Source of the DNA: Candidatus Micrarchaeota archaeon
GTDB lineage: Archaea > Micrarchaeota > Micrarchaeia > Micrarchaeales > CABMGC01
Length of the DNA: 64,000 bases
Reading direction: 5' to 3'
NCBI GenBank assembly: GCA_021797995.1
Contig: JAJZYR010000001.1
Location: forward strand, 79,342-143,341
Below are positions 2,731 through 61,669 of this stretch, one piece after another. Position 1 is the stretch's first letter, and each line of letters begins with the position of its first letter. The notes beneath the pieces are model-generated. The model was not told the DNA's origin, did no database searches, and saw only the letters and a program-made list of their open reading frames with translations. Both the position numbers and the translations under genes were made by a program.

Positions 2731-4053
2731 CTAACTACCAAAGAAGGCCTTGTGCAGGTGCCTTACTGCATCGTCGGCATCCCCATCCTTCACGACAAGA
2801 CTCTGATTTATCTCGGAGGTGCTGGATGAGGTCATCTCCACTGCCACGCTGCTCAGCGTCGAGAAGATCCTGCTGAGCAGGTCGGTCCTGTATGCAAGGC
2901 CGTTGCCGACGACCGATACCATTGCCATGTTGCTCTTTATCTCCACCTCCGCAATCTTCTCCAGCTCTTTTACAAGCCCTCTTGTGTCGTGGCGCTGGTC
3001 CAGCGTAACCGAGACGTTGACTTCCGAGGTCGAGACCATGTCAACCGAGAGCCCGAACATGTCGAATGTCTCGAATACCCTCCTGAGGAACCCGTGCATG
3101 AGGAACATCTTCGGCGTGTGTATGTTTATCACGCTTATCCTCCTCTTGCATGCTATCGACGCTATCCGCTTCCTGTTTCCTATGCACCTGACAATCGTGG
3201 TGCCCCTGTGCGACGGATTGAATGTATTCAGTATCCTTACAGGTATGTTCTTGCTTATTGCGGGGAGTATCGTCTTTGGGTGAAGTACCTTTGCGCCGAT
3301 GAATGCGAGCTCTGAGGCCTCGGCGTATGATACCAGCCTTACGTTCCTTGCACTCTTCACTATCCTGGGATCTGCCGTCATTATCCCGTCCACATCGGTC
3401 CATATCTCTATCCTCTCTGCACCTACCGCGGCGCCGATTATCGATGCTGTATAGTCGCTTCCCCCCCTCCCGAGGGTGGTTATCTCCCCGCGGCCGTTCT
3501 TCCCGATGAATCCGGTTACAACATGAAGGTCTGGGCCGTCCTTTCCGAGCGCAGCCCTTATCAAGCGGTATGCTCCAGGGAGTATGTCGGCATTTCCAAA
3601 GTCCGAGTTAGTCAACATGCCCGCATCATAGGCGTCGCATGCCGCTGCCGGAATGCCGCTCTCTGCCATATGCGCGGCTATTATCCTGCTCGACATGCGC
3701 TCCCCGAACGACATGATTGTATCAAGCACCTTTGGGGTAATGTCTCCAGGCCCATTTATCCTCGATGCCGACTTATCCAGCTGGCTTAGCTCCTTGTCTA
3801 TAAGTCCCTTCTTGAGCCCGAGGTCGCTTATCACCTTGTAGTGCCTCTCGCGTATCCAGTCGAGCTTGCCTTCTGCATGCCTGCCGGCCTGGGGACCATT
3901 TGCCAGGGCGATGAGCGCATCGGTAACCCCGCTCAGCGCTGATACGACGACGATTGGATTGCCCTTGCCCATTCTAGACCTTACGATGGCAGTGGCCTTC
4001 CTGATCTGCTCTGCGCTTCCGATAGAAGTGCCGCCGAACTTCATTACTATCAT
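2731..4053 (-). CDS. lysC: aspartate kinase
   Basis: MKFGGTSIG N-terminus, GRGGSDYTA motif and a C-terminal ACT-like duplication. The start forms an ATGA overlap with the dapB stop. Confidence 0.85.
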   Translation of the reverse strand: MIVMKFGGTSIGSAEQIRKATAIVRSRMGKGNPIVVVSALSGVTDALIALANGPQAGRHAEGKLDWIRERHYKVISDLGLKKGLIDKELSQLDKSASRINGPGDITPKVLDTIMSFGERMSSRIIAAHMAESGIPAAACDAYDAGMLTNSDFGNADILPGAYRLIRAALGKDGPDLHVVTGFIGKNGRGEITTLGRGGSDYTASIIGAAVGAERIEIWTDVDGIMTADPRIVKSARNVRLVSYAEASELAFIGAKVLHPKTILPAISKNIPVRILNTFNPSHRGTTIVRCIGNRKRIASIACKRRISVINIHTPKMFLMHGFLRRVFETFDMFGLSVDMVSTSEVNVSVTLDQRHDTRGLVKELEKIAEVEIKSNMAMVSVVGNGLAYRTDLLSRIFSTLSSVAVEMTSSSTSEINQSLVVKDGDADDAVRHLHKAFFGS

Positions 4054-10111: not shown

Positions 10112-12520
10112 CTATTGGCCGAGGCCGAGGCGCGTGAATGCCGCAACCTTTACTGCATCATTTACGAACATGAAGGCGATAGAGAGCGCGAAGACCGATA
10201 GTATCGGAACGAGCCCTATGCGCGGTATGAGGATTCCGAAATATGAGAGCACGACGCCTGCGAGGATCCCGATTGCGGATGAGAAGACAAGAGCTGCGCT
10301 GGGCCTCGACTTCCAGAAGGCGCGGCGCTCCCTCAGATTGAATACCGTCAGCTTGTCAGTGACGTCGAACATGAGGAAGATAAGCGTCTGGAATTGCAGT
10401 ACGGTCATGTTGAATAGCCCGAAGCCAAGTGGCACAAGTACAAGCGACTCCGCGATCAGCATGACCCCGAAGATCCCTGACGAGTACATGATCGACCGTA
10501 TATTCCACCTGTCTGGGCTCCTCGAATAACCAGTATTGTCGGTGGCGATTGAGATGTTTGCTATGTCATTTGTGAATATCAGCAGGATAAGGAGGAAGGT
10601 GGTTATGGGTATGAACTTAAACGCGATGAATGCGATCGCTACAAAGCCGACTATCTGGAAGACCTTGGCGACCTTTGCCATCGTGTAGACTAGCATGCGC
10701 TCGAATATTCTCCTGCTCTCCTTTACCGCGTCGACTATAACGCCTATGCCGTTCTTTGTAAGCACCAGGGCGGCGGAGCTCTTCGCAACGTCGGTAGCCG
10801 TGGCGACTGCGATTCCGACCTCGGCCTCCCTGAGCGCCGGGGCGTCGTTTACCCCGTCTCCGGTCATCCCCGTGACGAAGCCCATGCCCTGAAGGGCCTT
10901 GACTATCGTAAACTTGTCCTCAGGATACACCGCGGCGAAGCCGTCGGCCTTTATCGCAGCGCTGCCAAGCGATCCGCGCCGCCTGTCCATCAGGATTATG
11001 TTCTTGCCGATCCCCACCTCTCCCGCAATCTCGTCTGCAACAGGCAGGCTGTCCCCTGTTATCATCTTCACGGATATTCCAAGGCTTATAAGTTCGCCGA
11101 CAAGCCGCTTCGCCTCGGGCCTCGGGGCGTCGTAGAGCGCTATCAGGCCGGAGAGCTTCCATCCCGACCTTCCCGACTTTACAGCAACGGCGATGGCCCG
11201 CAGGCCGTTCCCCGCGAGCCTGGAGGCCTCGGCGTCGACCTGTTTCCTCTCCCGGCCGGAAAGGCTGACCAGCTTCATCACCGAGAGAACCGAACCCTTC
11301 GTAACCTCGTATGCCCTGCCTGAGCTGCCTCCGGAGATCTTTGCCTCAGTTCTCTTCGTGGACGGATTGAACGGGCTGAATGAGATCTGGTTGCCGGCCT
11401 TTATGCCCATCCCTGACGAGTAATCGAGCACCGCGTTGTCTATGGGATCGTTGTCCTCGAGCCTGGAGGCCTCGGCGGCGTACCTTACAACCGTCTCGTC
11501 GCTCTGGCCGTATGGCACCACTTTCTTCACAGTTATGGCATTTTTGGTCAGGGTGCCGGTCTTGTCGATGCAGAGCACCTTCATGGTCGCAGTGTCCTCT
11601 ATCGCCTCAAGCTTTGTCACGAGCACTGACTTCTTCGACAGTTTTGCAGTTCCCAGCGCCATCGCTACGGTAAATGCAGCAGACAAGGCCACTGGTATCG
11701 AGGCGATGAATACGACAAGCAGGAAAGGCAGCAGTATGGCGGTGCTGAACTTAAGCACGAAGACACCGTAGACGAACATCACCGAGACTATGGCGGCATC
11801 GCTTATGACAAGATACTTGACGAGCCTGAGTATCATGCCCTCAAGGTGCGACTTTGGATTTGCAACCTGCACGAGCTTCTCGACCATGCCGTACCGTGTA
11901 TGGTAACCGGTTCCAGTCACGAAGCACGTGGCCTCGCCGCGCTTGACCGTAGACCCTTGGTATACGCTGCCCTTTGGCCTTTTCTCCACGAGAAATGACT
12001 CGCCGCTTATCACCGACTCATCAATGGCAAGGGACTCGGACTCGATTATCTCCGCATCCGCAGGAACTATGTCCCCGAGCCTTATGCGTATCATATCCCC
12101 GGGCACCAGGAGCCTTGCAGGGATTGTGGACCATGAGCCATCCCTTAATGCCCTTGCATTTGAGGCAAGCATGCTCTTCAGGGCCATTATCGACTTGTCG
12201 GCCCTGTACTCTTCAAAGAAGCCGACGACCGCGTTGAGGACAAGAAGGGCTATGATTATGTAAAGGTCCTGAATGTGGCCGAGATAGAATGAAAGGAGGG
12301 CCACTGCCCAGAGCAGCAGCTGCACAGGCCCGTAGAACTTCCTCAGGAAGAGCAGGTAGTAATTCTTCCTCTTTTCGTTTACCTCGTTGTAGCCGTATCT
12401 GGCGAGCAGGCCCTGCGCCTCGGAAGAGGAGAGACCGTTCTTCCTGGCTGGTATTTTATCCATGTTCAGACCTTTTTGCAGCTTCTTTGGATGGGCACCT
12501 CGTGAAATCGCGCTTTCCAT
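10112..12520 (-). CDS. P-type ATPase, plasma-membrane H+-ATPase-like (type III)
   Basis: CIDKTGTLT phosphorylation site, MITGD, GDGVNDAPAL. The N-terminus GLSSSEAQGLLARYGYNEV is typical of type IIIA pumps. Ion specificity is inferred only. Confidence 0.8.
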   Translation of the reverse strand: MESAISRGAHPKKLQKGLNMDKIPARKNGLSSSEAQGLLARYGYNEVNEKRKNYYLLFLRKFYGPVQLLLWAVALLSFYLGHIQDLYIIIALLVLNAVVGFFEEYRADKSIMALKSMLASNARALRDGSWSTIPARLLVPGDMIRIRLGDIVPADAEIIESESLAIDESVISGESFLVEKRPKGSVYQGSTVKRGEATCFVTGTGYHTRYGMVEKLVQVANPKSHLEGMILRLVKYLVISDAAIVSVMFVYGVFVLKFSTAILLPFLLVVFIASIPVALSAAFTVAMALGTAKLSKKSVLVTKLEAIEDTATMKVLCIDKTGTLTKNAITVKKVVPYGQSDETVVRYAAEASRLEDNDPIDNAVLDYSSGMGIKAGNQISFSPFNPSTKRTEAKISGGSSGRAYEVTKGSVLSVMKLVSLSGRERKQVDAEASRLAGNGLRAIAVAVKSGRSGWKLSGLIALYDAPRPEAKRLVGELISLGISVKMITGDSLPVADEIAGEVGIGKNIILMDRRRGSLGSAAIKADGFAAVYPEDKFTIVKALQGMGFVTGMTGDGVNDAPALREAEVGIAVATATDVAKSSAALVLTKNGIGVIVDAVKESRRIFERMLVYTMAKVAKVFQIVGFVAIAFIAFKFIPITTFLLILLIFTNDIANISIATDNTGYSRSPDRWNIRSIMYSSGIFGVMLIAESLVLVPLGFGLFNMTVLQFQTLIFLMFDVTDKLTVFNLRERRAFWKSRPSAALVFSSAIGILAGVVLSYFGILIPRIGLVPILSVFALSIAFMFVNDAVKVAAFTRLGLGQ

Positions 12521-16634: not shown

Positions 16635-17858
16635 TTGAAGCTTAGTTCCGGCTGGTTCAAATTCCTGCTTGCCTCAAGGGCGATTAGGAGCATTGCGCTG
16701 ATATACATGACACTTGCCGCTCCGCTGTACCTGAACCTGATAGGCATAAGCGTGCCCGGGATAGGAATAATCTATGTGGCCGTTATGCTGCTTTCCGCCG
16801 CGCTGAACCTTTTCCTAGGAATGTTAGGGGACAGGAAGGGCTACAAGAAGGCGCTCATTCTGGCAGAGGTCCTCCCTATGCTCTCAGCCTTCACGCTGTG
16901 GTTTACCGGAAACGCCCCTGCAGTAGTGCTTGCGGTCATCTTCGGTGGCGTTGGAGGGGTTGCCGGGGGCATAAGAGGGGTATACTCTCCAGGAAGCACG
17001 GCCCTGGTGGCGTCAAGTTATCCGCAGGACGACGAACGGGTAAGAAAACTGGGAGCCTTGATAAAGATAGGCGCGGCCTTCAGCATCCTCGGGGCTATTA
17101 TGCTCATTGCCCAGTCATACCTGTTTGCAATTGTTGGAGCGGCGTATGCCTACAGGCTGCTCTTCCTTGCTGCGGCGGCAATGATGGCGCTGTCCCTGAT
17201 AAGCTTGATGTTCATAAAGGAGGCCAAAAGACCTAAAAAGACAACTAGGATGATGAAAAGAGCCAGCTTGGCATATACGCTAAAGGTGATCGCCTCTAAC
17301 ATGGCAAATGGGGCAGGGATGGGTCTTTCGCTGCCTCTCCTGCCCCTTATAATCGGGCTGGCGTTCCATGTGCCTGTCCAGTCACTCGGGCTCACTGTCG
17401 GCCTGGTTTACATACCGTCATATGCAGGGGTTGCGCTTGGATCGTATCTTTCCGGAAGGCATTCCATGAGGAACAATATCGTCAGGACGGCAAGTTATAC
17501 CAGGATGGCAAGCGGCAGTCTTATGATGGCCATGGGAGCAGTGATAGCCGCAGGATACTTTGACTTCTGGATACCGGTTTACCTGCTTGCCATAGTAACC
17601 CTGCTGTACCTGCTCAGGTCCGTAATTGCGGGCTTTGGCAGTCCTTCCGTCAATGCCGTAAACATAAAAGGGATAGACGCCGAGGACTATGGCACTGCAT
17701 CAAGCATACAAGGAGTGGCAGTTGGGGCCTCGATGTCCAGCAGCGGAGCAAGCGGCTTCCTCATGGATGCCTTTCTCCCACTACCCCTCTTCCTCGGCGG
17801 GGCCCTGCAGGCGGTAAGCGGGGTCTTGTATGGGAGATTCTTCACTGACAGGAAATAA
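16635..17858 (+). CDS. MFS transporter
   Basis: Multi-TM ORF. In-frame TTG at 16635 lies about 33 nt downstream of aaatatattta. The ORF track start at 16563 is also TTG, so the start is uncertain. Confidence 0.6.
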   Translation: MKLSSGWFKFLLASRAIRSIALIYMTLAAPLYLNLIGISVPGIGIIYVAVMLLSAALNLFLGMLGDRKGYKKALILAEVLPMLSAFTLWFTGNAPAVVLAVIFGGVGGVAGGIRGVYSPGSTALVASSYPQDDERVRKLGALIKIGAAFSILGAIMLIAQSYLFAIVGAAYAYRLLFLAAAAMMALSLISLMFIKEAKRPKKTTRMMKRASLAYTLKVIASNMANGAGMGLSLPLLPLIIGLAFHVPVQSLGLTVGLVYIPSYAGVALGSYLSGRHSMRNNIVRTASYTRMASGSLMMAMGAVIAAGYFDFWIPVYLLAIVTLLYLLRSVIAGFGSPSVNAVNIKGIDAEDYGTASSIQGVAVGASMSSSGASGFLMDAFLPLPLFLGGALQAVSGVLYGRFFTDRK

Positions 17859-18042
17859 CTGTTTAGTATTTTGAAGTTACTATTGGCAATTTATTACAGT
17901 ATAAGAGGCCATTGGCCTTTATGGCTCCTCGCACTGGCGATGCCAGAGCAAGAGGAGCGGCAGCCCTAGCCACCGTGAGGGCTTTTACCTGAGTACCTGC
18001 ATCATCGAGTAGATATAATATTTATTGTCCTCCAATGCATGC

Positions 18043-18228
18043 ATGCGTGATATGATGGAGAAGGTAGTGTTTGAATTTACACAGAATGGCCCGGTCCTGG
18101 TCAAAAAAGACGGAAAGGTGGAATTTGCCTTGTGCAGATGCGGCCATTCGACTAAAAAGCCGTTCTGTAGTGGAGCACATGTGGATGCAGGATTCAAAGC
18201 CGACCGCAGTATGCTGGAGCTGAAATAG
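18043..18228 (+). CDS. CDGSH-type iron-sulfur domain protein (variant motif)
   Basis: CRCGHSTKKPFCSGAH matches C-x-C-x2-S-x3-P-x-C-[D>S]-G-A-H. ATG 18043 lies about 25 nt after gatataatattta. Confidence 0.6.
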   Translation: MRDMMEKVVFEFTQNGPVLVKKDGKVEFALCRCGHSTKKPFCSGAHVDAGFKADRSMLELK

Positions 18229-18320
18229 CGGGACCTCGTGATAAGGCCAGTGAGGCGCCGTAAAAAGCGTTTCGCTTTCGCCCCACACTATTGTACTACG
18301 CCAGACAACACAGAATATAG

Positions 18321-19466
18321 CTACTGATAAACCAGAAGCGGTATCTTCATCTCCAGTTCAGACATGCCAGAATGGAAACCTCTATTATCGAACTTTCTTG
18401 GCTTTTCCAGGGGGTATTGGTATTTTATAATTCCATTATCCTTCATAAGTATCATATGCGTTCCAAATCTGTGCCTTAACCTATCGCTTACTGCCCGTTT
18501 TCCAAATATGCCAGAGTGAATAAGCGAATCGCTCTCTACGAGAAGTGCGTCGTTTCCGTATTTGCGCTCAAAGAATCCGGTTAGACTGTCCTCTTTGCCA
18601 GGCAAGGCACTTAAGCACATGACTCGTGAATCGCCCCATGGTGGCATTGAGATGTATCTCATGATCTCGTCACCGCTTTTTATTATAATCTTCTTCTTTG
18701 CCTCAATTTGACCATGATCCGAGGTTATTACTAAATTGTAGCCGCTCTTTTTCAAATGAGAGGCAAGTATCTGGTTCAGATCTCTGAAGAGTGAGAGCAC
18801 GCCCTGCTTTACTGACTCCGAGCTATAGCCATTTTTGTGTTCTAAGTGGTCTATTGAAGGATAGTAAGCGTATACAAACCACTCATCCCCTTTCTCAACT
18901 ATCTTCTTGAGTTTGACCATCAAGTCTGCAGAAGTATGATAACTGACATTTCTGCTGTTTTCAATGGTTCTGATGTTCTTTATGTCATCCGGATAGACTA
19001 TGCTTATACTGCCTTTATGTGCAGCTTTCTCAAGAATTGTCGGTTTGGCAAGCACACTGGCCATCCCTTCCTGGCTAAGGCTCGCCCTTCTCGAAAAAGC
19101 GATGGAATCTCTGTATGGCGTGATAACCACCCCGAACTCCTTATAATATACATCCCACCCTATCAAGCCGTGCTCTGCCGGCGTGAGGCCAGATTCCAAC
19201 GAATTCAGGATGGGAACGGTCGTGGAGGGGAACAATGTGCTTATCTTCTCCATATGCGCTTGATTTACAAGCGAGGCATTTGGCCCGTTTAGCATATCCT
19301 CTACCAGATTGTAGCCGAGTCCATCAACAACAAGGAATATCGTTTTCTCTCCAGCTCCAACGATGCCCTTTCTTCCCGACGCTATTCCCTTTATTACTGA
19401 CAGGTTGCTGTTCCCATATTCAGGAAGCACAAAACCATTATCCATAAGTTCGGATGTCAATTCCAT
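18321..19466 (-). CDS. alkaline-phosphatase superfamily enzyme, NPP/PglZ-like phosphodiesterase
   Basis: Ordered motifs VVDGLG, FPSTTVP (nucleophile Thr context), GLTPAEHG, YYPSIDHLEHKNG, ITSDHGQ and GFHSG. The gene is AT-richer than its flanks. Confidence 0.6.
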   Translation of the reverse strand: MELTSELMDNGFVLPEYGNSNLSVIKGIASGRKGIVGAGEKTIFLVVDGLGYNLVEDMLNGPNASLVNQAHMEKISTLFPSTTVPILNSLESGLTPAEHGLIGWDVYYKEFGVVITPYRDSIAFSRRASLSQEGMASVLAKPTILEKAAHKGSISIVYPDDIKNIRTIENSRNVSYHTSADLMVKLKKIVEKGDEWFVYAYYPSIDHLEHKNGYSSESVKQGVLSLFRDLNQILASHLKKSGYNLVITSDHGQIEAKKKIIIKSGDEIMRYISMPPWGDSRVMCLSALPGKEDSLTGFFERKYGNDALLVESDSLIHSGIFGKRAVSDRLRHRFGTHMILMKDNGIIKYQYPLEKPRKFDNRGFHSGMSELEMKIPLLVYQ

Positions 19467-19575
19467 AATATCAATTTTGCATTACTATTCTATAAAACTT
19501 GCCTACTACGCTTCCAACTACGTCTGACCGATATGTGGTACTGTCATCTAGCTACTTATGAAACCGCTATTGAAT

Positions 19576-19591
19576 GTGGATGGACTCTGCG
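19576..19591. repeat. direct repeat copy of the tRNA-Ala(GGC) 3' end plus trailer (att-like)
   Basis: gtggatggactctgcg here matches gtggaatggactctgcg at 21226-21242. That is an 11-nt exact core plus 5 further nt with a 1-nt indel. The second copy is the last 11 nt of the tRNA plus its 3' trailer. Confidence 0.65.
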
Positions 19592-19672
19592 ATAGTCAGT
19601 CATTGAGTATGATGTACAAACACTATCACCTGATGATGTTTAACATCAAACACAGTTATTCGCAGTCGCTTA

Positions 19673-20560
19673 CTATTTCAGATATCTTCGATACTCTTTT
19701 ATATATCTTCTAAAGAACCACGCCACAAATATAGAATCAATTTTTTTGACCTGTGCCCTTTCCAAGGCATTATAATATCCTATCCTATTTTTGTAGGATA
19801 TATTGAGCATCGGATAACCAAGTCTGTTTAGAATAAAGTTCATAATGAGCCTTGATAATCTTCCATTTCCGTCTATAAACGGGTGTACTGTAACAAATTT
19901 TAAGTGTGCTAGTGCAGCCAACTCAACAGGATGCATTTTCATTCTGTTTTTATTGTACCAACTAAAGAAATCCTCAAGTAACGGCATGACTTCTACAGGA
20001 CTTGGAGGTATAAATTTGCTGCCATGTATCCAAACCTGCCTCGTTCGTATTTTTCCAGCTATATCCTTCTTTGTATTTTCAAAAAGAGTATGGTGCCATT
20101 CCAAGATGAGTTGCAGAGTCAGACCTTTTTTATATCTCAGCATATTATAAAAGATATTCGAATGCGCCTCGGCTTCTTTAGCATCTCTCGAAGGTTTATT
20201 TGAAGGTGTCACTCCATGCTGTAATAAATTAGCGGTTTCTTTTAGGGTTAGTGTTGAACCTTCTATTTTTTGAGTATCATAAGTAAACTTAATCATAAAT
20301 CCTTCAATTTCTTTGTCTTTTTCAGAGGGAGTTGCAGAACCGATGTCTTTTTTATAGGACGCCTTTATCTTATCCAATGATAAATACCACTTCTGAGTGT
20401 AAACCTGTGTGAGAAAATCGCTCTTTATTTTATCTAAATTCTTAGGTATACTACTCCCCAGATATTTCTCCTTCTTAATGACAGTTCCATTAAGCCTGAA
20501 AGAGTGTTCGATATAGTAGTACTTTTTATTACCGTATTTCCGTTCCCTTATATTTACCAT
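19673..20560 (-). CDS. Fic-domain protein (AMPylase family)
   Basis: HPFIDGNGRLSRL is the canonical HPFx(D/E)GNGR motif. An upstream TQKIEGS helix motif is present. ATG 20560 (MVNIRERKYG) lies about 25 nt after a minus-strand tttataaat TATA box. Confidence 0.85.
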   Translation of the reverse strand: MVNIRERKYGNKKYYYIEHSFRLNGTVIKKEKYLGSSIPKNLDKIKSDFLTQVYTQKWYLSLDKIKASYKKDIGSATPSEKDKEIEGFMIKFTYDTQKIEGSTLTLKETANLLQHGVTPSNKPSRDAKEAEAHSNIFYNMLRYKKGLTLQLILEWHHTLFENTKKDIAGKIRTRQVWIHGSKFIPPSPVEVMPLLEDFFSWYNKNRMKMHPVELAALAHLKFVTVHPFIDGNGRLSRLIMNFILNRLGYPMLNISYKNRIGYYNALERAQVKKIDSIFVAWFFRRYIKEYRRYLK

Positions 20561-20725
20561 AGTAATACTTGCCCCTACACATTTATAAATATTTGGTTTT
20601 TGATTGAAATGTAGGGGTAGATAGCTACTACTATGGGATTTGTATCCTGCCTCCTCGTAAACGTTAAATGGACTCAGCGTGGCTTCCAACAAAGTTGTAA
20701 GTTCCTCGTATATAGCTATATAACG

Positions 20726-21145
20726 CTATACGAGTATGGCTAAGATAATAGCAGGTACGATGACAAACCAGGCAAGTAAATACATCAGATTAAGCGGAAA
20801 GCTGCGTATATCTATCTTCTCTCCTAAGACGGTTATAAGCAAGTCCAAAATTATCGTAAATAGGAGAGAGGTGATACCAACTGGGAGAAGTTGGATAGCC
20901 GACAGGGACAAGTGCAATTCCGCTAGCACAACCTTGGTCGTTATGAAAAACGACACGAAGCTGCAAATCGGCACAGTAGCGATTGCAAGGGCTGAAGGAA
21001 GCCTCTTAACAATGGCAAGTGGGTGTTTATAGTCCATGCTGATTCTGAATAACTTGAAGTATATAAGGAAAAAGACAATGCCCAACAGCCATAGTCCGAT
21101 ATATCCTATTAATGGGATAAGGATAACGATCAGCTCGTTAGCCAT
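20726..21145 (-). CDS. small integral membrane protein, hypothetical
   Basis: 139 aa with 4 hydrophobic segments. AT-rich and co-oriented upstream of the Fic gene. Confidence 0.55.
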   Translation of the reverse strand: MANELIVILIPLIGYIGLWLLGIVFFLIYFKLFRISMDYKHPLAIVKRLPSALAIATVPICSFVSFFITTKVVLAELHLSLSAIQLLPVGITSLLFTIILDLLITVLGEKIDIRSFPLNLMYLLAWFVIVPAIILAILV

Positions 21146-21231
21146 GAACTTCGCCTACTTATTGTGACCTTGAGCAGTTATTATAATTATGCCTGGGGTG
21201 ATATGCACATGCCCACGAGGGACAAGTGGAA

Positions 21232-21303
21232 TGGACTCTGCGGGATTTGAACCCGCAACCTCCTGCATGCCATGCAGGCGCGCTACCATTGCGCTAAGAG
21301 CCC
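21232..21303 (-). tRNA. tRNA-Ala (anticodon GGC)
   Basis: 72-nt cloverleaf. Acceptor GGGCTCT/AGAGTCC with G3:U70. D arm GCGC-AATGGTA-GCGC. Anticodon arm CCTGC-ATGGCAT-GCAGG. T arm GCGGG-TTCAAAT-CCCGC. Discriminator A, no encoded CCA. Confidence 0.9.
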
Positions 21304-21641
21304 AGAATCTGCAGTTAGAGTTGTCTGATTTGACATGTGACATCCTCCCCGGGCTTTAGCCCGGGGCTTCCCATCGGACCAAGACTTCCCGATCCGAAGG
21401 TATGTTCTCGCTTCGACGGTCCCGCTTTCGCATCCGTTTCCGGGTGCAAAGAGGCAGGATCTCCACGAGCTTCAATTCCCGCATGCCCTGCGGTACTCTT
21501 GTGCAGTATATTCCTCGCAGCATTTATATCCCTGTCGATCCGGAGGCCGCACACCATGCAGGAGTACGTCCTCTCGCCGAGAGAGATGTCCCTGATTGCA
21601 CTGCACGCGCTGCACCTTCTTGTCGTATCCTTCGGTTCCAC
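21304..21641 (-). mobile_element. tnpB: IS200/IS605-family remnant: TnpB (OrfB) C-terminal fragment plus right-end hairpin
   Basis: The translated tail PKDTTRRCSACS...YSCMVCGLRIDRDINAARNIL carries a zinc ribbon and the RuvC-III DRDxNAAxNI motif. It continues into ...GSPGLKPGEDVT, which is encoded by the GC hairpin ccccgggc-ttta-gcccgggg (21347-21366). Only about 105 aa of a normally ~400-aa protein remain. Confidence 0.7.
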
Positions 21642-21851
21642 TGGGTCTATCCTTATCCCGACCTCCTCCCTGGCCTCTCTTACCGCAGCCGCGCTGATAG
21701 CCTCGCCTTTCTCTAAGTGGCCGGATGGCATAGAGTACCATCCATCCCTGTAACCGGTGCCTTTGCGCCTTATGAGAAGTATCTTCCCCTCCTTTCTGAG
21801 TAGGATGAATACGCCAATCCTGTGGCCGCTCCGTATCTCATGTCCAGGCAT
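21642..21851 (-). pseudogene. Nudix hydrolase, N-terminal ~70 aa, fused in frame to the TnpB fragment
   Basis: The complete Nudix box GHLEKGEAISAAAVREAREEVGI is followed within about 5 codons by TnpB sequence. The rest of the Nudix fold is missing. Confidence 0.65.
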
Positions 21852-36482: not shown

Positions 36483-36584
36483 GGGCTCGTAGCGCAGCAG
36501 TAGCGCGCATCGTTCGCAAGAAGCCTCTAAAAAAGGCTTCATCGAAAGACGATGAGGTCGCGGGTGCGATTCCCGCCGAGTCCA
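36483..36584 (+). tRNA. tRNA-Ala (anticodon CGC) with 30-nt intron
   Basis: Acceptor GGGCTCG/CGAGTCC with G3:U70. D arm GCGC-AGCAGTA-GCGC. Anticodon stem CATCG/CGATG with loop TTCGCA|A. Intron 36519-36548 sits at position 37/38 and contains the hairpin GAAGCCT-N7-AGGCTTC. T arm GCGGG-TGCGATT-CCCGC has a non-canonical loop. Discriminator A. Confidence 0.8.
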
Positions 36585-36675
36585 CATTTTTACTGCGGTA
36601 TTTGTTCTCTAGTAATGAACAATAGTGTTCATTGGTAATGAAAACATTTAAATATCTTAGCCTCTAAATGAAATC

Positions 36676-37896
36676 ATGATACTGAAGGAAACACTTAGGC
36701 AGATAGTCAAAGCTCAGAGGAAAGACTTAGAATCGTTCAGCTACGGAGTAGAAAGGGAAGAATTAGGTGAGATAAAACTCAATATGCATTACGCATTGAT
36801 ACTATCAGGTATAAGACGATGTGGTAAGAGTACTCTACTTCACCAATTGCTTAAAAAACTTCCAAATTTCTATTATCTAAACTTTGAGGACACACGGCTA
36901 GACAGCTTTCAAGTTGAGGATTTCGAAAAGTTAGATGAAATCTTCAAGGAAGATTACAGTGAATCCGAATACTATCTTTTCGATGAAATACAGAATATTG
37001 ATAAATGGGAGCTTTTTGTAAGATCCAGACTTGACAAACAGAAGAAATTTATTATTACAGGCTCTAACGCTTCGCTTTTAAGTAAGGAGCTTGGTACTAG
37101 ACTCACAGGCAGGCACATCAACATGGAACTGTTTCCATTCTCCTTTATGGAGTCGCTTTCTATGACTAAGGTAAAGGCAAGCGCAACTTCATTCTCAGAA
37201 TACTTAAGAAGTGGAGGGTTTCCAGAATATCTGAGATATAAAAAACAAGAAATACTGCGCGAGTTATTAACAGACATAATACAAAGGGATATTGTAGTAA
37301 GGCACAAATTGCGCGATTCTAAAACAGTGAAGACACTTGCGTTATATCTGCTTAGTAACACGGGCAACGAGTTTTCGTATAATAACCTTAAGAAGATGTT
37401 CAATCTGGGGTCAGTGAATACCGTAATAGCATTTGTTTCTTATTTTGAGGACAGCTACCTTCTATTTACTGTGCCAAAGTTTGATTACTCGCTTAAGAAA
37501 CAGATAGTTAATGCAAAAAAAATATATTCTATAGATAATGGTCTTTCGACCTCAAATTCGGCTTCGTTCTCTTCAGATTTAGGAAGAATGTTAGAGAATT
37601 CTGTATTCTTGCATCTTCGTAGGAGATATAAAGAAATATTCTACTTCAAAGGAAAAAGAGAATGCGATTTCTTAGTAAAGGAGCAAAACAAGATAAAAAT
37701 GGCAATACAGGTCTCGTATGAGCTAAACGAAGGAAATAAACAGAGAGAATTTGACGGACTTCTTGAAGCTATAAAAGAGTTTGATTTGGTAGAAGGATTA
37801 ATACTTACATTTGACCAAGAAGACAAATTTGAGATTGAGGGAAAACACATAATAGCAAAACCGGTTTGGAAATGGATGCTAGAAAGCAATTTGTAA
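36676..37896 (+). CDS. AAA+ ATPase, COG1373 type (AAA_14 + DUF4143), paralog 1
   Basis: GIRRCGKST Walker A, YYLFDEIQNIDKWE Walker B, ITGSNASLLSKELGTRLTGRH, C-terminal ECDF...IQV. AT-rich. TATA catttaaata lies about 25 nt upstream. Confidence 0.85.
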   Translation: MILKETLRQIVKAQRKDLESFSYGVEREELGEIKLNMHYALILSGIRRCGKSTLLHQLLKKLPNFYYLNFEDTRLDSFQVEDFEKLDEIFKEDYSESEYYLFDEIQNIDKWELFVRSRLDKQKKFIITGSNASLLSKELGTRLTGRHINMELFPFSFMESLSMTKVKASATSFSEYLRSGGFPEYLRYKKQEILRELLTDIIQRDIVVRHKLRDSKTVKTLALYLLSNTGNEFSYNNLKKMFNLGSVNTVIAFVSYFEDSYLLFTVPKFDYSLKKQIVNAKKIYSIDNGLSTSNSASFSSDLGRMLENSVFLHLRRRYKEIFYFKGKRECDFLVKEQNKIKMAIQVSYELNEGNKQREFDGLLEAIKEFDLVEGLILTFDQEDKFEIEGKHIIAKPVWKWMLESNL

Positions 37897-37995
37897 TGTA
37901 TGAAAGTGAAAAAGGAGGAACGAGATTAAAATTGTTTTATCTATGAGTCTGTGTTCAAAAGAAATATCTCCAATTTGGATTTTACCTAGTACACA

Positions 37996-38113
37996 AACCT
38001 TTTTGGAAAGGTTAATCGAAAACACTGGGTGCGAATACAGCCAGATTTGCACCGTGTCTGTTTATATTTCTAAATGCGGTATAATCTGTGTGCGAAGACA
38101 CAGATGTTCGCAT
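37996..38113 (+). repeat. conserved non-coding module R, copy 1
   Basis: Hairpin aaccttt-ttgg-aaaggtt (37996-38013). Hairpin 38023-38056. TATA tttatatt (38061-38068). gtgtgcgaa...ttcgcat hairpin. Homologous to 42857-43010 and 45542-45695. Confidence 0.8.
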
Positions 38114-38170
38114 TTCTGAAAATAAAATCTACGGTGGCTATATGGAAACGAAAGCTAGACGAAAAAGCTA

Positions 38171-38226
38171 CGACCCGCGTCCGCTTTGCAAGCGGAAGGT
38201 CGCTGGTGCGATCCACGCGGAGTCGA
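38171..38226 (+). pseudogene. tRNA-Ala(UGC)-like 3' fragment
   Basis: Anticodon arm TCCGC-TTTGCAA-GCGGA. Then AGGTC, an imperfect T arm with a TGCGATC loop, and GGAGTCG-A. There is no matching 5' acceptor strand or D arm. Confidence 0.6.
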
Positions 38227-38232
38227 TTCAAG

Positions 38233-39690
38233 CTACCTGTCCGGCTTCGTAGTGCCTGCGCCGTGAAGCTGTTGTACTCTGTCATCCTTCCCTCTTGCCA
38301 GCGATACTATCCCTGCAGCGACAAGTATGACTATCATTGCAACGAACGAGAACCGCATGCCCGTGATGAATGCGCTGGCAGTTGCCCCTGTCAGCTTTGC
38401 AGAGGTGCCTACGAAGATCTCAAACGCCTGCGCGCGCGGTATCGATGCAGCTGCTACCACGAAAACGACTATGAAGCTGCCCATCATGCCTATGGTAGAG
38501 AACATCCTGGACAATCCGGAAGCTATGCCGAACCTGCTCTGCTCTGCGTGCGCCATGATGGAGCTACTGTTTGCTGGCCAGAACATCGCGCCCCCTATAC
38601 CTGTAATCAGCGACCCTAGTATTACAAGGTAGACCGAGGAGTATGGATTCAGGAACATGTACACTATTATCCCAAGTATCTGGAGGGCTATGCCCAAGGT
38701 CGCCACAATCCTCGCGCCGTGCTTGTCCGAGATCCTGCCCATGTAAGGCGACAGCAGGCCGCTTACAACGTAGCCTGGCACAAGCAGGAGGGAAGCGAAG
38801 AGGGGTGTAAAGCCGAGGACCCCCTGAAGATACAGTATAAGCATGAAGACGACTCCCAGGAAGCCCAGGCCCTGAAGCATAGCAGCGAAAACTGAGTTCT
38901 TGAACACCCTGTTCGCGAACATGTCGAACGGTATCGTTGGGCTCTCAGATCTCCTCTCTATGAAGTAGAACGCTGCCAGGAGCAATACGCCTATGACCAC
39001 CATAACCGTGTTGAGTGCACCTGTGCCGGTTGAGGCATATCCTATGCCGCCGTACAGCAGCAGGGACAGGGCAACTGCCAACGTCACCATGCCCCCTATG
39101 TCCAGCTTGGCTGCGAACGTCTGCTTGTCGGATATGTACTTGACGCCCAATACCAATGCCACTATGCCTATTGGCACGTTTATGAAGAATATGTACTGCC
39201 AGCCTATGAAGGTTGTTATTATGCCGCCAAGTAGTATGCCTAGGAGCGCCCCTATATTGTATGCCATGGCGGTGAAGCCGAAAGCCCTTCCGATTCTGTG
39301 CCTTCCGAAGGTATCAGCTATTATTGCGCCGCTGGTTGCTGCGATCATCGCCCCTCCGAGCCCCTGCACTGCCCTAAATACGATAAGGAGAACGTCAGTA
39401 GGGGCTATGCCGCAAAGGAAAGAGGAAGCGGTAAACACGGCAAGCCCGGCTATGAAGATTTTGGCCCTGCCATATATGTCGCCCACCTTACCGAACTGTG
39501 TTGTGGCTACTGCACTGATGAGCATGTATATCAATATGACCCATATTATGGTAGTCAAGTTAGAATGAAGCGACGACACTATTGCAGGGAATGCCAACAG
39601 CACTATTGTTGAGTCTATGGCTGCCATCAGCACTGCTACGAGTATCACACCCAGTATTATGTCCTCGTGTACGTGTTTTGCAGCCAACAT
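38233..39690 (-). CDS. MFS transporter, DHA2 (EmrB/QacA-like, 14-TM) family
   Basis: 485 aa with about 14 hydrophobic segments. N-terminal LMAAIDSTIV and GKVGDIYGR motifs. Confidence 0.75.
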   Translation of the reverse strand: MLAAKHVHEDIILGVILVAVLMAAIDSTIVLLAFPAIVSSLHSNLTTIIWVILIYMLISAVATTQFGKVGDIYGRAKIFIAGLAVFTASSFLCGIAPTDVLLIVFRAVQGLGGAMIAATSGAIIADTFGRHRIGRAFGFTAMAYNIGALLGILLGGIITTFIGWQYIFFINVPIGIVALVLGVKYISDKQTFAAKLDIGGMVTLAVALSLLLYGGIGYASTGTGALNTVMVVIGVLLLAAFYFIERRSESPTIPFDMFANRVFKNSVFAAMLQGLGFLGVVFMLILYLQGVLGFTPLFASLLLVPGYVVSGLLSPYMGRISDKHGARIVATLGIALQILGIIVYMFLNPYSSVYLVILGSLITGIGGAMFWPANSSSIMAHAEQSRFGIASGLSRMFSTIGMMGSFIVVFVVAAASIPRAQAFEIFVGTSAKLTGATASAFITGMRFSFVAMIVILVAAGIVSLARGKDDRVQQLHGAGTTKPDR

Positions 39691-40022
39691 AGGAATCAGC
39701 GTATGATAACGGCATATCCACTGCCAATTACATACATGTAGCTGTTTTAACGGTCGAAGCTTAATAACCTTTATCAGTTACTTACGGAATACGCGTAACA
39801 ATATTCCACTATAAAAGATAAATTTACTTGCTTATAATGGCCCAATAAGGACGGCGTAAGCTTAAGGAAAGATTTCACTCCTTTTTCTTCATTGGTTATA
39901 TGTTTGGGGCCAGCTATGTGACATCCTCCGATGACTAAAGGTCGTTGGCTTCCCCTGCATTTGCAGGGTATGTTCTCAATTCCTCAAGCGGCTTTTCGAT
40001 TCCTGTTGAATCGCAGAGGCTA

Positions 40023-40655
40023 CTAATATGGGCTGGTGAGCTTGCCGGCGTCTGCAGATTCTTTGTGCCGCTTTATGAAATTCAGGACGACTGTAGCAGT
40101 ATGCTTGTCGTATCTCTCAAGGTATTTGTGGATCTTTTTTCTGCTTATCTTCTTTAGTAGCTCGCTGTAATCTTGAATCGGCAATTTCACCCTATAGTAG
40201 AACAGGTCTATAAGCGTCTTTTCTGGTTCAGATACAGGCACCTCCAGTGTCCCGTATTTGACTATGCCAAATCCGAAGAAATACTTTGCTGGCATGTGGT
40301 GGACGAAGACCGTTTCCTTTATATCGCCAAATATGTGTATCGAAGAGGCGCGGACCTTCCTGATGGTAATGATATCAGGCCTAGAGTTCTGTGTCCAAAG
40401 CTCCCTTATAGTTAGCGCGGACAGCAATCCATAGTAGAATGGACTGTATGCAAAGCCTGCCACCATGCTATCTTTTTTGAATGCATAGGCCCCTTTTCTA
40501 ACCGTATACAGCTTTCCGCTGCTCTTCATATACGCGATGATCCTTGTAAGGTTTGCCGTTTTCAGCTTTTTGTTTTTGAAGTATAGCTTAAGGTCCCTGC
40601 GCGTGAACACAGGGTAGTCTGAAAAATGATTAATTATGTCCTTTACTATTGTCAC
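40023..40655 (-). CDS. AbiEi-like antitoxin / COG5340-type wHTH regulator (tentative)
   Basis: 210 aa. The N-terminal pattern FTRRDL...L..L..SGKLYTVRKGAYAF resembles AbiEi wHTH domains. It overlaps the upstream nucleotidyltransferase gene by 26 nt. Confidence 0.5.
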   Translation of the reverse strand: MTIVKDIINHFSDYPVFTRRDLKLYFKNKKLKTANLTRIIAYMKSSGKLYTVRKGAYAFKKDSMVAGFAYSPFYYGLLSALTIRELWTQNSRPDIITIRKVRASSIHIFGDIKETVFVHHMPAKYFFGFGIVKYGTLEVPVSEPEKTLIDLFYYRVKLPIQDYSELLKKISRKKIHKYLERYDKHTATVVLNFIKRHKESADAGKLTSPY

Positions 40656-41328
40656 TCAACCACTTCTTTATCGTGTTCACCATCAGGTCGAATGTCGGCG
40701 GCAGGCCTGCGATTATCAGATGCCCTAAGCTGCCCATATTCGGCGGCGGATTTCCGTCTATTTTTCCAATTAATGCCTTTAGCCGTTTGACTGACGTTGC
40801 ATCAACCCTGTTGATCAGGGAAATCAGATAGTAAATATCATACAGATCCTGCACTTCAGTCTGCTTGAATCTCTCCACACTATTCAATTTATCTTCATAG
40901 GCGGCCATCTTTTCATTGAGCAGTTCCAATGGACTTAGAGATAGGACAACGATTTTGCTGCCGTCAATTTTCATGTAATCGAATTCGGTGCCCTTTTTGT
41001 ATTTGAAGTTGATGTCGATTTTCATCTTTGTGTTGGATTCTACCAAAAAGTGCATCGTGTCTGTTGCCTTTTCATATCCCTTTTCTTTCATCAGAAATCC
41101 TGAATCTTTCAAGAAATCTGAGAGCTCCTTGTAGTGCCGCATCTTTTCTTCGTTTGTCTTAGCATCGAGATAGAAGTCTATGTCTCTAGAGAACCTGTTT
41201 CCCCCATGGCATCTCCATATCGAAGTGCCGCCGTGAAACACCAGGCCGTTGTATCTGCTATACAGGAGTTCTACTAGAACGTCCTCCAGTTTTGCTTTCT
41301 CCATCTGCGCCTGATCTCTTATATCCAT
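40630..41328 (-). CDS. nucleotidyltransferase AbiEii/AbiGii toxin family (DUF1814)
   Basis: FHGGTSIWRCHGGNRFSRDIDFYL matches the GGTAL...R.S.DIDF N-terminal motif of the family. 232 aa. Confidence 0.65.
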   Translation of the reverse strand: MDIRDQAQMEKAKLEDVLVELLYSRYNGLVFHGGTSIWRCHGGNRFSRDIDFYLDAKTNEEKMRHYKELSDFLKDSGFLMKEKGYEKATDTMHFLVESNTKMKIDINFKYKKGTEFDYMKIDGSKIVVLSLSPLELLNEKMAAYEDKLNSVERFKQTEVQDLYDIYYLISLINRVDATSVKRLKALIGKIDGNPPPNMGSLGHLIIAGLPPTFDLMVNTIKKWLSDNSKGHN

Positions 41329-41402
41329 AGAACCATAACTACATTTTATTACAATTTTATGTAATAATATGCACTTATATATTTAAATACCTTGCTGTTG
41401 AA

Positions 41403-41499
41403 GGCAGTGTGGCGGTAGTGCTCATCGTTCGCAAGAAGCCTCTAAAAAAGGCTTCATCGAAAGAGGATGAGTTCGCGGGTTCGAATCCCGCGGAGTCTA
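41403..41499 (+). pseudogene. tRNA-Ala(CGC)-derived pseudo-tRNA retaining the intron
   Basis: A 42-nt run (41423-41464) is identical to tRNA 36508-36549, covering the anticodon stem-loop and the whole intron. The T arm is canonical (GCGGG-TTCGAAT-CCCGC). The 5' acceptor strand and D stem do not pair, and the anticodon stem has one mismatch. Confidence 0.7.
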
Positions 41500-41577
41500 C
41501 TTACTCTGATTAGGTCGTTTGGATATTATATAGTATAGTAACAAAGATTTAAATAACATTATATAGTATACTATATC

Positions 41578-42852
41578 ATGGATAAAGAAACGCTCAGGCT
41601 CGTAATAGTTGACCAGAGAAAGAGCCTCGAGGAAAAGCTTAGAGACAAAAACATAATCGTTCGGGATGCAAGTAAGTCGATAGTGCTGAAAGCCCCGACC
41701 GCCTTCATAGTCCTCGGGGTCAGGCGCTCTGGCAAGTCTACGCTTTCGGAGCAGTTGTTTATTGATGACAAATTTGGTTATATAAATTTTGATGACGAGA
41801 GGCTCCTAGGCGCAACTAGAGATGACCTTAATATCATACTTCAGATATTCTATGAGTTGTACGGATCCGATCTTGGCAATATAATACTCGATGAGATACA
41901 ATTAGTACCTGGTTGGGAACCGTTTGTGAGCAGGCTTAGGGATACAAAGAAGGTCATAGTCACTGGGTCTAGCTCTAAACTGCTTAGTGGCGAGCTTTCG
42001 ACCAGGCTGACAGGCAGGCACATCGACCTCCTGTTGTTTCCGTTCAGCTTTAATGAGTTTCTTACGTATAAACACTGGAACATACCTAAGGCTTTCTCTA
42101 CTACCGATAGGGCAGAGGTTGTAAGATTACTCGATGAGTATATAAGCTCTGGGGGATTCCCGGAGCAGTTTACCTTGGGCAGGCAGATAATCAGGAACAT
42201 TTACAATGATATAATAACAAAAGACATCGTAATAAGGCATAAGATAAAGTACATAGACGACTTAAGGCAGGCAGCGCGGTTTTTGGTATCAAACAGCTCA
42301 AAAGAATTTACATACTCTTCTCTTAAAGGTGTGACTGGGGCCAAGAGCATTATAACCCTATCGAATTGGGTGAGGTACCTTGAAGAGGCATATCTTATCT
42401 TCAAAATAGAGCGGTTTTCATATAAACTGAAGCAAACAATCCTCGCGCCTAAAAAGATATACTGCGTCGATGTTGGTATAATAAACGGGATAAGCCCGGA
42501 GCCGACGGGCAACAAAGGCAGATTGATGGAGAATACTGTTGCAATGGAACTGATAAAGGGCAGCAAAAATGTCGGATTTGAGGTATTTTACTGGAAGGAC
42601 CATCAAGGGAGGGAGGTAGATTTTATTATTAAGGACGACAGAAAGGTCGCTAAGCTAATCCAGGCTACTTATGCAACAAGCCGTGAAGCAATTGAAGATA
42701 GGGAAATAAAGTCGCTAGTAATAGCTTCTAACGAACTGAGATGCAATAATCTCTTCATAGTCACGTGGGATTATGAGGGCAGTATCGTGATAGAAGGAAA
42801 GAAAATAGCACTTGTTCCATTATGGAAGTGGCTGCTGAATAAAGAATTATGA
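41578..42852 (+). CDS. AAA+ ATPase, COG1373 type (AAA_14 + DUF4143), paralog 2
   Basis: GVRRSGKST, NIILDEIQLVPGWE, VTGSSSKLLSGELSTRLTGRH, C-terminal REVDF...IQA. TATA atttaaataac lies about 25 nt upstream. Confidence 0.85.
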   Translation: MDKETLRLVIVDQRKSLEEKLRDKNIIVRDASKSIVLKAPTAFIVLGVRRSGKSTLSEQLFIDDKFGYINFDDERLLGATRDDLNIILQIFYELYGSDLGNIILDEIQLVPGWEPFVSRLRDTKKVIVTGSSSKLLSGELSTRLTGRHIDLLLFPFSFNEFLTYKHWNIPKAFSTTDRAEVVRLLDEYISSGGFPEQFTLGRQIIRNIYNDIITKDIVIRHKIKYIDDLRQAARFLVSNSSKEFTYSSLKGVTGAKSIITLSNWVRYLEEAYLIFKIERFSYKLKQTILAPKKIYCVDVGIINGISPEPTGNKGRLMENTVAMELIKGSKNVGFEVFYWKDHQGREVDFIIKDDRKVAKLIQATYATSREAIEDREIKSLVIASNELRCNNLFIVTWDYEGSIVIEGKKIALVPLWKWLLNKEL

Positions 42853-42856
42853 CAAT

Positions 42857-43010
42857 GCTTTACGAAAAGCTTTACCAAAGAGTCTGGGTGCGTAACCTTT
42901 TTGAAAAGGTTGAACCAGAACACTGGGTGCAGTTTTGTCGTTATTTGCACCGTGTCTCTTTATATTTCTGAAATGCCATAGTCTGTGTGCGGATACACAG
43001 ATGCGCGCAT
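42857..43010 (+). repeat. conserved non-coding module R, copy 2
   Basis: Starts 5 nt after the ATPase-2 stop. Hairpins at 42894-42911 and 42921-42954. TATA at 42959-42966. By hand alignment there are 3 mismatches in about 117 nt versus copy 3. Confidence 0.85.
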
Positions 43011-43061
43011 TTTGAAATATGATCTACTGTGGCTTGAATGGCTAGAAGAAATGACGGTAAA

Positions 43062-43119
43062 AGCTTAGAGCGCGTCGTTCGCAACGATGAGATTGCGAGT
43101 TCAAATCCTGCCGAGTCCA
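43062..43119 (+). pseudogene. intron-less tRNA-Ala(CGC)-derived 3' fragment
   Basis: CGTCG-TTCGCAA-CGATG anticodon arm joined exactly at the exon-exon junction of the 36483 tRNA. T arm GCGAG-TTCAAAT-CCTGC. CGAGTCC-A. The 5' acceptor strand and most of the D arm are absent. Confidence 0.65.
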
Positions 43120-43230
43120 TTTTATGTTTACGAGTGAAGCAGGTGCGATGGACTTGTCTTTAGTCTTTGGTAGAAATAGATGTTCTATATTCTAGAATAT
43201 CCAGAAGATTTATATATGTATATCATCACA

Positions 43231-43248
43231 TATATCACTAGTGATATA
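43231..43248. promoter_or_regulatory. perfect 18-bp palindrome, candidate PadR operator
   Basis: tatatcact|agtgatata lies between the TATA-like gatttatatatg (43207-43218) and ATG 43249. Confidence 0.5.
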
Positions 43249-45522: not shown

Positions 45523-45541
45523 TAACGAGCAACTTACAAGA

Positions 45542-45695: not shown

Positions 45696-45757
45696 CCATC
45701 CAATGGCTGAAGTGCGTGGACTCTCTGCTATTCATTTTGTAAGACTGTAGGCGCGTG

Positions 45758-46423: not shown

Positions 46424-46503
46424 GCCAGACCTCTGTTGTCAGTTATATAGAATGGCCGAGAAGCCTTAAATATCTTTAAATTAGACTGTTCTATCGGGTT
46501 CTT

Positions 46504-61655: not shown

Positions 61656-61669
61656 TCATAGGTGAAAAA

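Follow-up and report, generated by a model that had tools for sequence, protein, structure and literature searches.

Two single-gene units bounded by copies of a tRNA-Ala(GGC) 3' end in a Micrarchaeota genome

DPANN archaea, which live attached to other archaea, have very small genomes, and their gain of accessory and defense genes is poorly understood. A locus in a Candidatus Micrarchaeota genome (GenBank assembly GCA_021797995.1, contig JAJZYR010000001.1, positions 79,342 to 143,341) puts the question in concrete form: how did two small genes, one for a membrane protein and one for a Fic protein, come to lie behind a tRNA-Ala(GGC) gene, between copies of that tRNA's 3' end and with no integrase gene nearby? 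All coordinates below are positions in this 64-kb stretch, which we call the window. According to the original prediction, which was made from the sequence of the window, the two genes form one cassette that is bracketed by a direct repeat of the tRNA end and was inserted there. We find that the repeat is not due to chance, that the bracketed interval consists of two units, and that the locus is a familiar tRNA-linked insertion site, unusual only in the smallness of its modules and in having no integrase gene nearby. The explanation that we favor, with a probability of roughly 55%, is serial site-specific integration of two unrelated, non-autonomous single-gene modules at the tRNA-Ala(GGC) 3' end by a recombinase acting in trans.

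The anchor of the array is an intact, full-length tRNA-Ala(GGC) gene on the minus strand, placed at 21231-21304 by ARAGORN and at 21232-21303 by Rfam (RF00005, 70.7 bits). Its last 11 nucleotides (nt), made up of the three final T-stem nucleotides, the 3' acceptor strand and the discriminator, are the core that recurs in the array; U70, inside the acceptor strand of the core, is alanine-specific. The predicted repeat pair, gtggatggactctgcg at 19576-19591 and gtggaatggactctgcg at 21226-21242, is present in the sequence, and the two tRNA placements agree with the assignment of the proximal copy to the last 11 nt of the tRNA plus its trailer. On the tRNA strand, the proximal copy (core C, 21242 to 21232) reads CGCAGAGTCCA followed by TTCCAC, and the distal copy (core A within 19591 to 19576, the core itself at 19581-19591) reads CGCAGAGTCCA followed by TCCAC; the two outer repeats are identical over 12 nt. 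A third, co-oriented copy, core B (CGCTGAGTCCA, 20669-20679), has one mismatch to the tRNA end and falls between the membrane-protein gene and the Fic gene. The array, as delimited by sequence and repeat counts, thus runs along the minus strand in the order tRNA-core, membrane unit, core, Fic unit, core, chromosome: core C is the proximal edge of unit 1, the membrane-protein module (20680-21231, 563 bp from core to core), core B is the border between the units, and core A is the distal edge of unit 2, the Fic module (19592-20668, 1088 bp from core to core). Downstream of core A come TCCACATTCAATAGCGG and then a phosphodiesterase-family gene. The tRNA trailer, TTCCACTTGTCCC, is part of the membrane unit, because it also stands 3' of a core that does not belong to a tRNA in a related contig (L025).

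Counts of the repeat bear out the earlier estimate that it is unlikely to have arisen by chance. With at most one mismatch allowed, the window has three occurrences of the 12-mer ATGGACTCTGCG for an expectation of 0.32, and none of 100 shuffles reached three; we estimate a probability of about 1e-4 that an exact 12-mer recurs in the same orientation within 1.7 kb. With the same tolerance, CGCNGAGTCCA has 14 matches in the window where 4.2 are expected, and half of these (7/14) fall in two tRNA-Ala arrays, co-oriented with the tRNA. One is the present array and the other is a sister array at a tRNA-Ala(CGC) gene, where a repeat search located an eighth, more degenerate core (AGCAGAGTCGG, 46558-46568). 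Distal to core A, no core with up to two mismatches was found on that strand down to 14 kb.

The interval is foreign in composition, with a GC content of 0.42 in unit 1 and 0.35 in unit 2 versus 0.54 in the RNA polymerase genes, and of 0.33-0.44 overall versus 0.52-0.57 in the surroundings. GC content, open reading frames (ORFs) and a PF02661 match agree with the description of an AT-rich interval that holds only the membrane-protein and Fic genes, both oriented like the tRNA, and the broader claim of an insertion at the tRNA-Ala 3' end, bounded by direct repeats, is likewise supported. Two other claims did not stand. The two genes are not one cassette: core B separates them, the membrane unit is not accompanied by Fic in two other lineages, and Fic is found elsewhere without the membrane gene. 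The near match in size to the ATPase units of the sister array (1.65 versus 1.62-1.64 kb), which had been taken as a sign of common mobilization, is a coincidence of adding 563 and 1088 bp. Every core copy is intergenic: the stop codon of one gene stands before it and the promoter-like box of the next gene after it. On the gene strand, the TATA-like box of unit 1 is GGCATAATTATAATAAC (21178-21191, minus strand, approximately 35-50 nt upstream of the ATG), which is conserved in an alignment across three lineages, and that of unit 2 is AAATATTTATAAATG (20580-20594, minus strand, 20-35 nt upstream of the ATG). Neither inverted repeats pairing the unit ends nor attC-like palindromes were found in a repeat analysis of those ends.

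We compared the locus with contigs (L-numbers) from NCBI metagenome-assembled genomes (MAGs) and from ENA, JGI and Logan metagenome assemblies. In L025-L027 and L029, the last of which is annotated as a Micrarchaeota MAG, the membrane unit is 90% identical at the nucleotide level and has CGCCGAGTCCA at both sides, with neither a tRNA nor Fic adjoining; homology to the window starts at one core and stops just past the next. An RHH-gene unit lies upstream of it and a 3-dmu-9_3-mt unit downstream, followed by a decayed core (CGCCTAGTCCA), an RHH-PIN pair and another core. In the GC-richer L169, whose membrane protein is 74% identical in amino acids, an intact core stands 102 nt upstream of the gene and a decayed core (AACCGAGTCTA) approximately 47 nt past its stop, with spacing as in the window, and the neighbors differ again. 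Taken together, the membrane unit measures 563 bp in two lineages and has a core at both ends in three, within three sets of neighbors.

The Fic unit is found in other settings as well. L021 is 97% identical to the window through the tRNA, the membrane unit and the Fic unit up to the distal core, TGCCGAGTCCA, after which comes unrelated DNA with ASCH and acetyltransferase genes. In L058-L060, a Fic gene with 85% nucleotide identity and a homologous leader stands behind a copy, at least 35 nt long, of the tRNA-Ala(CGC) 3' half that ends in the core, and this copy is preceded by a 114-nt repeat otherwise seen in the CGC array. The next core in L059 is 3.9 kb off, past Fic, a PIF1/RecD-like WYL helicase and two small ORFs. 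Because homology breaks at the core in related contigs, we regard the core as the recombination junction.

Unit-free forms of the tRNA gene, which the original prediction suggested looking for, exist in two relatives, and none was found within the species. In L167, from a related genus (RpoA'' 77% identical), LSm and tRNA-Ala(GGC) are followed by housekeeping genes, and the low-GC relative L056 has a similar unit-free tRNA-Ala(GGC). The T-loop of the L167 tRNA (approximately 11345-11451) contains a 31-nt insertion, probably a non-canonical intron, and the gene was not called by ARAGORN. A scan of JGI metagenomes with the tRNA 3' half returned only two loci, both distant comparisons. Seven LSm-anchored loci from other assemblies, which lack the tRNA and seemed to have different DNA past the NUDIX gene, were considered as empty sites and rejected: in all of them the divergence sets in exactly where ...GGATGTCAC stops, at the right end of an IS200/IS605 TnpB remnant, which suggests rearrangements related to the insertion sequence (IS), repeat-induced assembly joins or many IS copies. 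We also gave less weight to L028, where the membrane and 3-dmu units stand behind the window's own tRNA, as an example of a unit swap, given that the haplotype changes inside a 33-nt common stretch.

The sister array begins 15 kb from the GGC array with an intron-containing tRNA-Ala(CGC) on the plus strand (36483-36584), which ends in CGCCGAGTCCA, and extends over 36483-46568. It contains four decaying copies of the tRNA 3' half, at 38191, 41464, 43084 and 46533. These copies span 36-89 nt, the longest (41412-41500) being 90% identical over 89 nt with the intron included, and their cores have decayed to GAGTCGA, GAGTCTA and GAGTCGG. The cargo comprises three AAA_14/DUF4143 ATPases, an AbiEi/AbiEii pair, an MFS transporter and a methyltransferase, and PIN genes also belong to its defense-like part; the ATPases match the PADLOC candidate PDC-S01 (E values down to 4e-116), with a mutual identity of only 32-40%. 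The repeat of approximately 114 nt, at 37961-38074, 42859-42972 and 45546-45659, lies ahead of the pseudo-tRNA halves that close the ATPase units, recurs at 4781-5066 of L058 and looks like a conserved element end.

The GGC and CGC arrays are bounded by the same 11-nt core, with one position differing, and some of the sequence next to the core is alike between unrelated units. At the 5' starts, the first 25 nt or so of the Fic unit resemble those of the ATPase unit at 43120 (TTTAnnGTTTACGAG.GA.GCAGG, z score 7.4); at the 3' ends, the Fic unit resembles the RHH-PIN unit (GTTTGTAMATCATAC..., z score 6.0) and the 3-dmu unit resembles that of L059 (z score 9.4). A recombination system common to both arrays is plausible because the core and some arm sequence are common to them. 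Together with the Fic genes found behind a CGC 3'-half copy in L058-L060, the common core and the arm at 43120 uphold the proposed link between the two loci.

No integrase or recombinase family was detected by Pfam in the larger ORFs of the window or in its gene tables, consistent with the description of the insertion as integrase-less, and the gene tables of the related loci list no integrase, nor is there one in the larger L059 unit. No int(N)/int(C) fragments were noted by the cores on ORF inspection and Pfam analysis of the called ORFs, no search dedicated to the intergenic sequence having been made. The interval, with its two genes, contains no transposase or casposase gene. A literature search on Micrarchaeota integrases or DUF4143 mobility turned up nothing specific. 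We consider the units non-autonomous because neither the larger ORFs of the window nor the gene tables of the related loci contain a recombinase.

We propose an integration hot spot, of which the interval would be the tRNA-proximal end; each insertion would bring its own copy of the tRNA terminal sequence, rebuild the tRNA and push the older copy distally. According to one account, an integrase classically leaves tandem direct repeats of a tRNA 3' end (PMC4383910), and in tycheposon islands the arrival of newer elements shifts the earlier ones distally, with partial tRNAs as what remains (bioRxiv 10.1101/2020.12.28.424599). Strand exchange would most likely occur within the invariant GAGTCCA(T), whose length matches that of a tyrosine-recombinase overlap region. 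Immediately 5' of GAGTCCA, the base is A in the tRNA and in copy A, T in copy B and C in the CGC-type copies, and we place the exchange inside GAGTCCA(T) because this base varies yet the tRNA keeps the one that pairs with its position 7. The enzyme, acting in trans, would presumably be a tyrosine integrase encoded by an autonomous relative, whether elsewhere in the genome or in the community, and the same enzyme family may serve the tRNA-Ala(CGC) array. Each unit, with its own putative promoter box, would be expressed independently, and the units might still be mobile today.

Several observations weigh against this proposal. Neither a recombinase nor an excised circle was found in the window or the related loci, and no virus or plasmid with the site was found in IMG/VR, where a 22-mer had no match and a 15-mer had 104, almost all of them chance matches or unrelated tRNAs. 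Identity between copies at the GGC array covers only 11-13 nt, far below the 36-89 nt of the CGC array and short for known archaeal attachment sites. The arm likenesses cover few nucleotides and might reflect a common promoter or terminator sequence instead of sites bound by a recombinase. We read 22 contigs retrieved with the exact membrane protein and 23 retrieved with the exact CDGSH protein; all those that are long enough to show it have the order tRNA-membrane-Fic, the sole exception being the distal junction of L021, and this fixed order gives no indication that units are still being exchanged in the population. Nor was an empty site found within the species, as the long-enough contigs with the exact phosphodiesterase-family or CDGSH protein all carry the Fic unit, and L028 may be an assembly chimera. 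More distant Fic homologues (83% and 76% identity) have neither cores nor a tRNA, and the association with the core is therefore lineage-specific.

Some of the same facts can be accommodated by a possible, if less probable, alternative, in which the units are dead remnants of larger plasmids or proviruses that integrated, lost their integrase and replication genes by internal deletion, and are now fixed and immobile. The fixed arrangement in the species contigs, unchanged in more than 20 of them, and the larger Fic unit of L059 argue for such decay: the window's 1.1-kb unit could be a deletion derivative of something like the 3.9-kb core-to-core unit there. Cores of the CGC array are visibly decaying, and degenerate elements with partial tRNAs are common in tRNA islands (bioRxiv 10.1101/2020.12.28.424599). 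Random decay would not, however, be expected to leave the membrane unit at 563 bp in two lineages with both cores kept in three, or similar sequence on both sides of the core in unrelated units, and the larger L059 unit lacks an integrase too. Conserved ends and constant size across lineages argue for mobilization in trans, which we consider plausible. We are more hesitant still about a wider version of serial integration, an integron-like cassette system of the Micrarchaeota built on the tRNA-Ala 11-nt core, in which single-gene modules of sub-kilobase to kilobase size, mostly for defense or toxins and each with its own promoter and arms, would be inserted, excised and shuffled between arrays and lineages by a recombinase in trans that would also flip the segment between the tRNAs.

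It is improbable that the units were exchanged with no integrase at all, by homologous or microhomology recombination using the tRNA-derived sequence and the arms as short patches. That process would account for the haplotype switch of L028, which falls in a 33-nt identical stretch 25-57 nt past the core and not at the core, for the failure to find an integrase, and for the flanks of the two inverted tRNA-Ala genes, which appear swapped relative to L167. Yet 11-13 nt is very short for homologous recombination, the junctions of L021, L025, L029 and L169 lie exactly at the core, L028 may be a chimeric contig, and tandem direct repeats of a tRNA 3' end are the hallmark of an integrase (PMC4383910). 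We give very little credence to a single 1.65-kb Fic-plus-membrane cassette that moved whole with one repeat pair. Its outer repeats are exact over 12 nt and its genes are adjacent and co-oriented in every species contig, but a third core lies between these genes, the membrane gene occurs core-flanked without Fic and Fic elsewhere without the membrane gene, and the two halves differ in GC content and have a TATA-like box each. Least credible of all is a chance repeat, or an RNA or regulatory motif such as a tRNA-like 3' processing or termination signal, with no insertion involved. The core is short, and its intergenic position between a stop codon and a promoter-like box would suit a terminator or processing signal; against this stand the shuffle statistics, the identity of the core to the adjacent tRNA's 3' end, the coincidence of between-genome homology breakpoints with the core, and the CGC-array copies, whose length of 36-89 nt, intron included, is explicable only by duplication of a tRNA end.

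Serial integration also has to be set beside known systems. As in tRNA islands of the Islander type and the tycheposons of Prochlorococcus, an intact tRNA stands at one end and 3'-end direct repeats have been displaced. Foreign composition, stacked insertions with the older ones distal, and adaptive or defense cargo are further points in common (PMC4383910; bioRxiv 10.1101/2020.12.28.424599). Here, however, the array and its vicinity yielded neither an integrase nor a fragment of one. The host belongs to the DPANN archaea (Micrarchaeota), the units have one gene each and measure 0.56 and 1.09 kb instead of the usual 5-20 kb, and the repeat is only 11-13 nt long. Cis-mobilizable elements (CIMEs), known from streptococcal families of integrative and conjugative elements, have lost their integration genes and "retain intact attL and attR" (PMC6323972); in the same way, cores flank each recombinase-less unit here, in tandem with other elements at one site. 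CIMEs are bacterial and come from identified conjugative elements that mobilize them after accretion, whereas the units in the window are single genes for which no autonomous partner turned up in the window, the related loci or IMG/VR. We know of no conjugative context in archaea equivalent to that of CIMEs.

Integron cassette arrays, which have been reported in archaeal MAGs as well, resemble the present array in their mostly co-oriented single-gene units without a recombinase, their short recurring core, their loose flanks and their combinations that vary by genome. Unlike them, this array has no intI, attI or Pc, its recurring site directly copies the 3' end of a tRNA and is not an imperfect-palindrome attC, and each unit has a TATA-like box, whereas integron cassettes are mostly promoterless. 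In Sulfolobus gene capture, too, tRNA-derived repeats flank the captured genes. Archaeal gene capture and chromosome flipping, as in Thermococcus pTN3 (PMC5495485), share with this locus the tRNA-derived flanking repeats and the opposed tRNA genes as inversion endpoints, but involve an integrase or split int(N)/int(C) and attachment sites of approximately 40 nt or more, none of which was seen here. Elements of the SSV type differ in that no int(N)/int(C) fragments were noted among the called ORFs beside the cores, and casposons and transposons in that no terminal inverted repeats pair the unit ends and no transposase or casposase gene is present.

If a recombinase does act in trans, the locus would be a compact platform for acquiring defense genes, with the logic of an integron or a CIME on a tRNA end, and the core GAGTCCA with its arms offers a concrete substrate for finding the enzyme. 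If the units are only remnants, this is an ordinary tRNA-linked island that matters mainly for annotation, which should show two units and a Fic protein of 295 rather than 339 amino acids.

Judged by sequence, the cargo would be of a defense or stress type, with a FICD/SoFic-like Fic protein and a small membrane protein. The Fic gene (19673-20560, minus strand) starts at the ATG at 20560, as called in most related contigs, and encodes 295 amino acids; a 339-amino acid ORF that reads across core B was rejected as an artifactual 5' extension, related contigs calling 295. The protein matches Pfam PF02661 with an E value of 1.5e-22 (80.7 bits, cut-off 24). Its catalytic motif HPFIDGNGR, within HPFIDGNGRLSR, aligns with the FICD motif HxFx(D/E)GNGRxxR, and its inhibitory-helix motif TQKIEG aligns with TVAIEG of FICD, N-terminal to the Fic core on one chain. 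The best PDB match is human FICD (1.7e-32), with both motifs aligned. These alignments identify it as a class II, FICD-like enzyme of the AMP-transferase family. In PADLOC, the protein matches SoFic (2.7e-34), over profile positions 50-248 of 361 only, as well as the candidate PDC-S04, and its direct similarity to SoFic structures is weak (7e-6). Thus, the HPFIDGNGR motif, the N-terminal TxxIEG helix and the SoFic model match link it to class II FICD/HYPE and SoFic, from which it differs in its length of 295 amino acids, in its N-terminal 80 residues and in having no SoFic-like C-terminal extension. Upstream of the gene, the perfect 8-nt palindrome arms CCCCTACA (20572-20579) and TGTAGGGG (20610-20617) surround the TATA-like box and may form an operator.

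The membrane-protein gene (20726-21145, minus strand) encodes 139 amino acids and has no match in Pfam or PADLOC. With 32 homologues and 20 invariant columns, the ORF belongs to a real, conserved family of small, hydrophobic proteins that, from their sequence, appear to span the membrane. Bacterial homologues that are 46-60% identical occur in acidophilic or sediment organisms (L030-L037: Peptococcaceae CEB3, Dehalococcoidales, Kryptoniota and Bacteroidetes MAGs), which points to cross-domain gene transfer. None is core-flanked, and their neighborhoods show no conserved partner and yielded no functional clue; in L033, a tRNA-Ala(TGC) lies 1 kb upstream of the homologue, with no repeat there.

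The upstream neighbors of the array are the tRNA, a NUDIX/TnpB remnant, LSm and the RNA polymerase operon. Split RNA polymerase subunits, the LSm protein and an intron-containing tRNA are among the window's genes, and all named relatives of its RpoA'' are Candidatus Micrarchaeota (58-69% identity). MAS-series sample names are shared with a published survey of acid mine drainage sediment, which suggests that origin. At 21337-21647 on the minus strand, the C-terminal part of an IS200/IS605 TnpB (Cas12f1-like_TNB) and a right end with a GC hairpin replace the 3' half of the NUDIX gene and create a 178-amino acid fusion ORF (21315-21851); L016, L017 and L021 have an intact NUDIX of 155 amino acids. 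Because these three contigs, without the remnant, still have the tRNA-membrane-Fic order, the TnpB remnant is unrelated to the insertion.

On the distal side, the region with the phosphodiesterase/PglZ-like and CDGSH genes (17850-19580) has an intermediate GC content of 0.41-0.47 versus 0.52-0.57, and no further core was found in it; it may represent an island segment that is older and has decayed completely. An inverted near-core (AGCCGAGTCCA, 19313-19323, plus strand) inside the phosphodiesterase-family gene encodes a DGLG motif and is probably due to chance. In distantly related genomes, a motif of approximately 24 nt, AAGCGGGTCTGGGTGCGATTGTA, lies approximately 50 nt past a tRNA-Ala-type core (L021, approximately 3185-3250; L057, 8197-8270) and may signal where inserted units of a further class begin. 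Finally, the block from a DUF1749 hydrolase to GrpE-DnaK, which in L167 stands directly behind tRNA-Ala(GGC) (11340-11460), is found in the window at 58251-63550, downstream of the oppositely oriented tRNA-Ala(CGC) array. This swap of flanks would be compatible with an inversion that has the 3' ends of the two tRNA-Ala genes as its endpoints; inverted tRNA genes serve as endpoints of chromosome inversion by the Thermococcus pTN3 integrase (PMC5495485).

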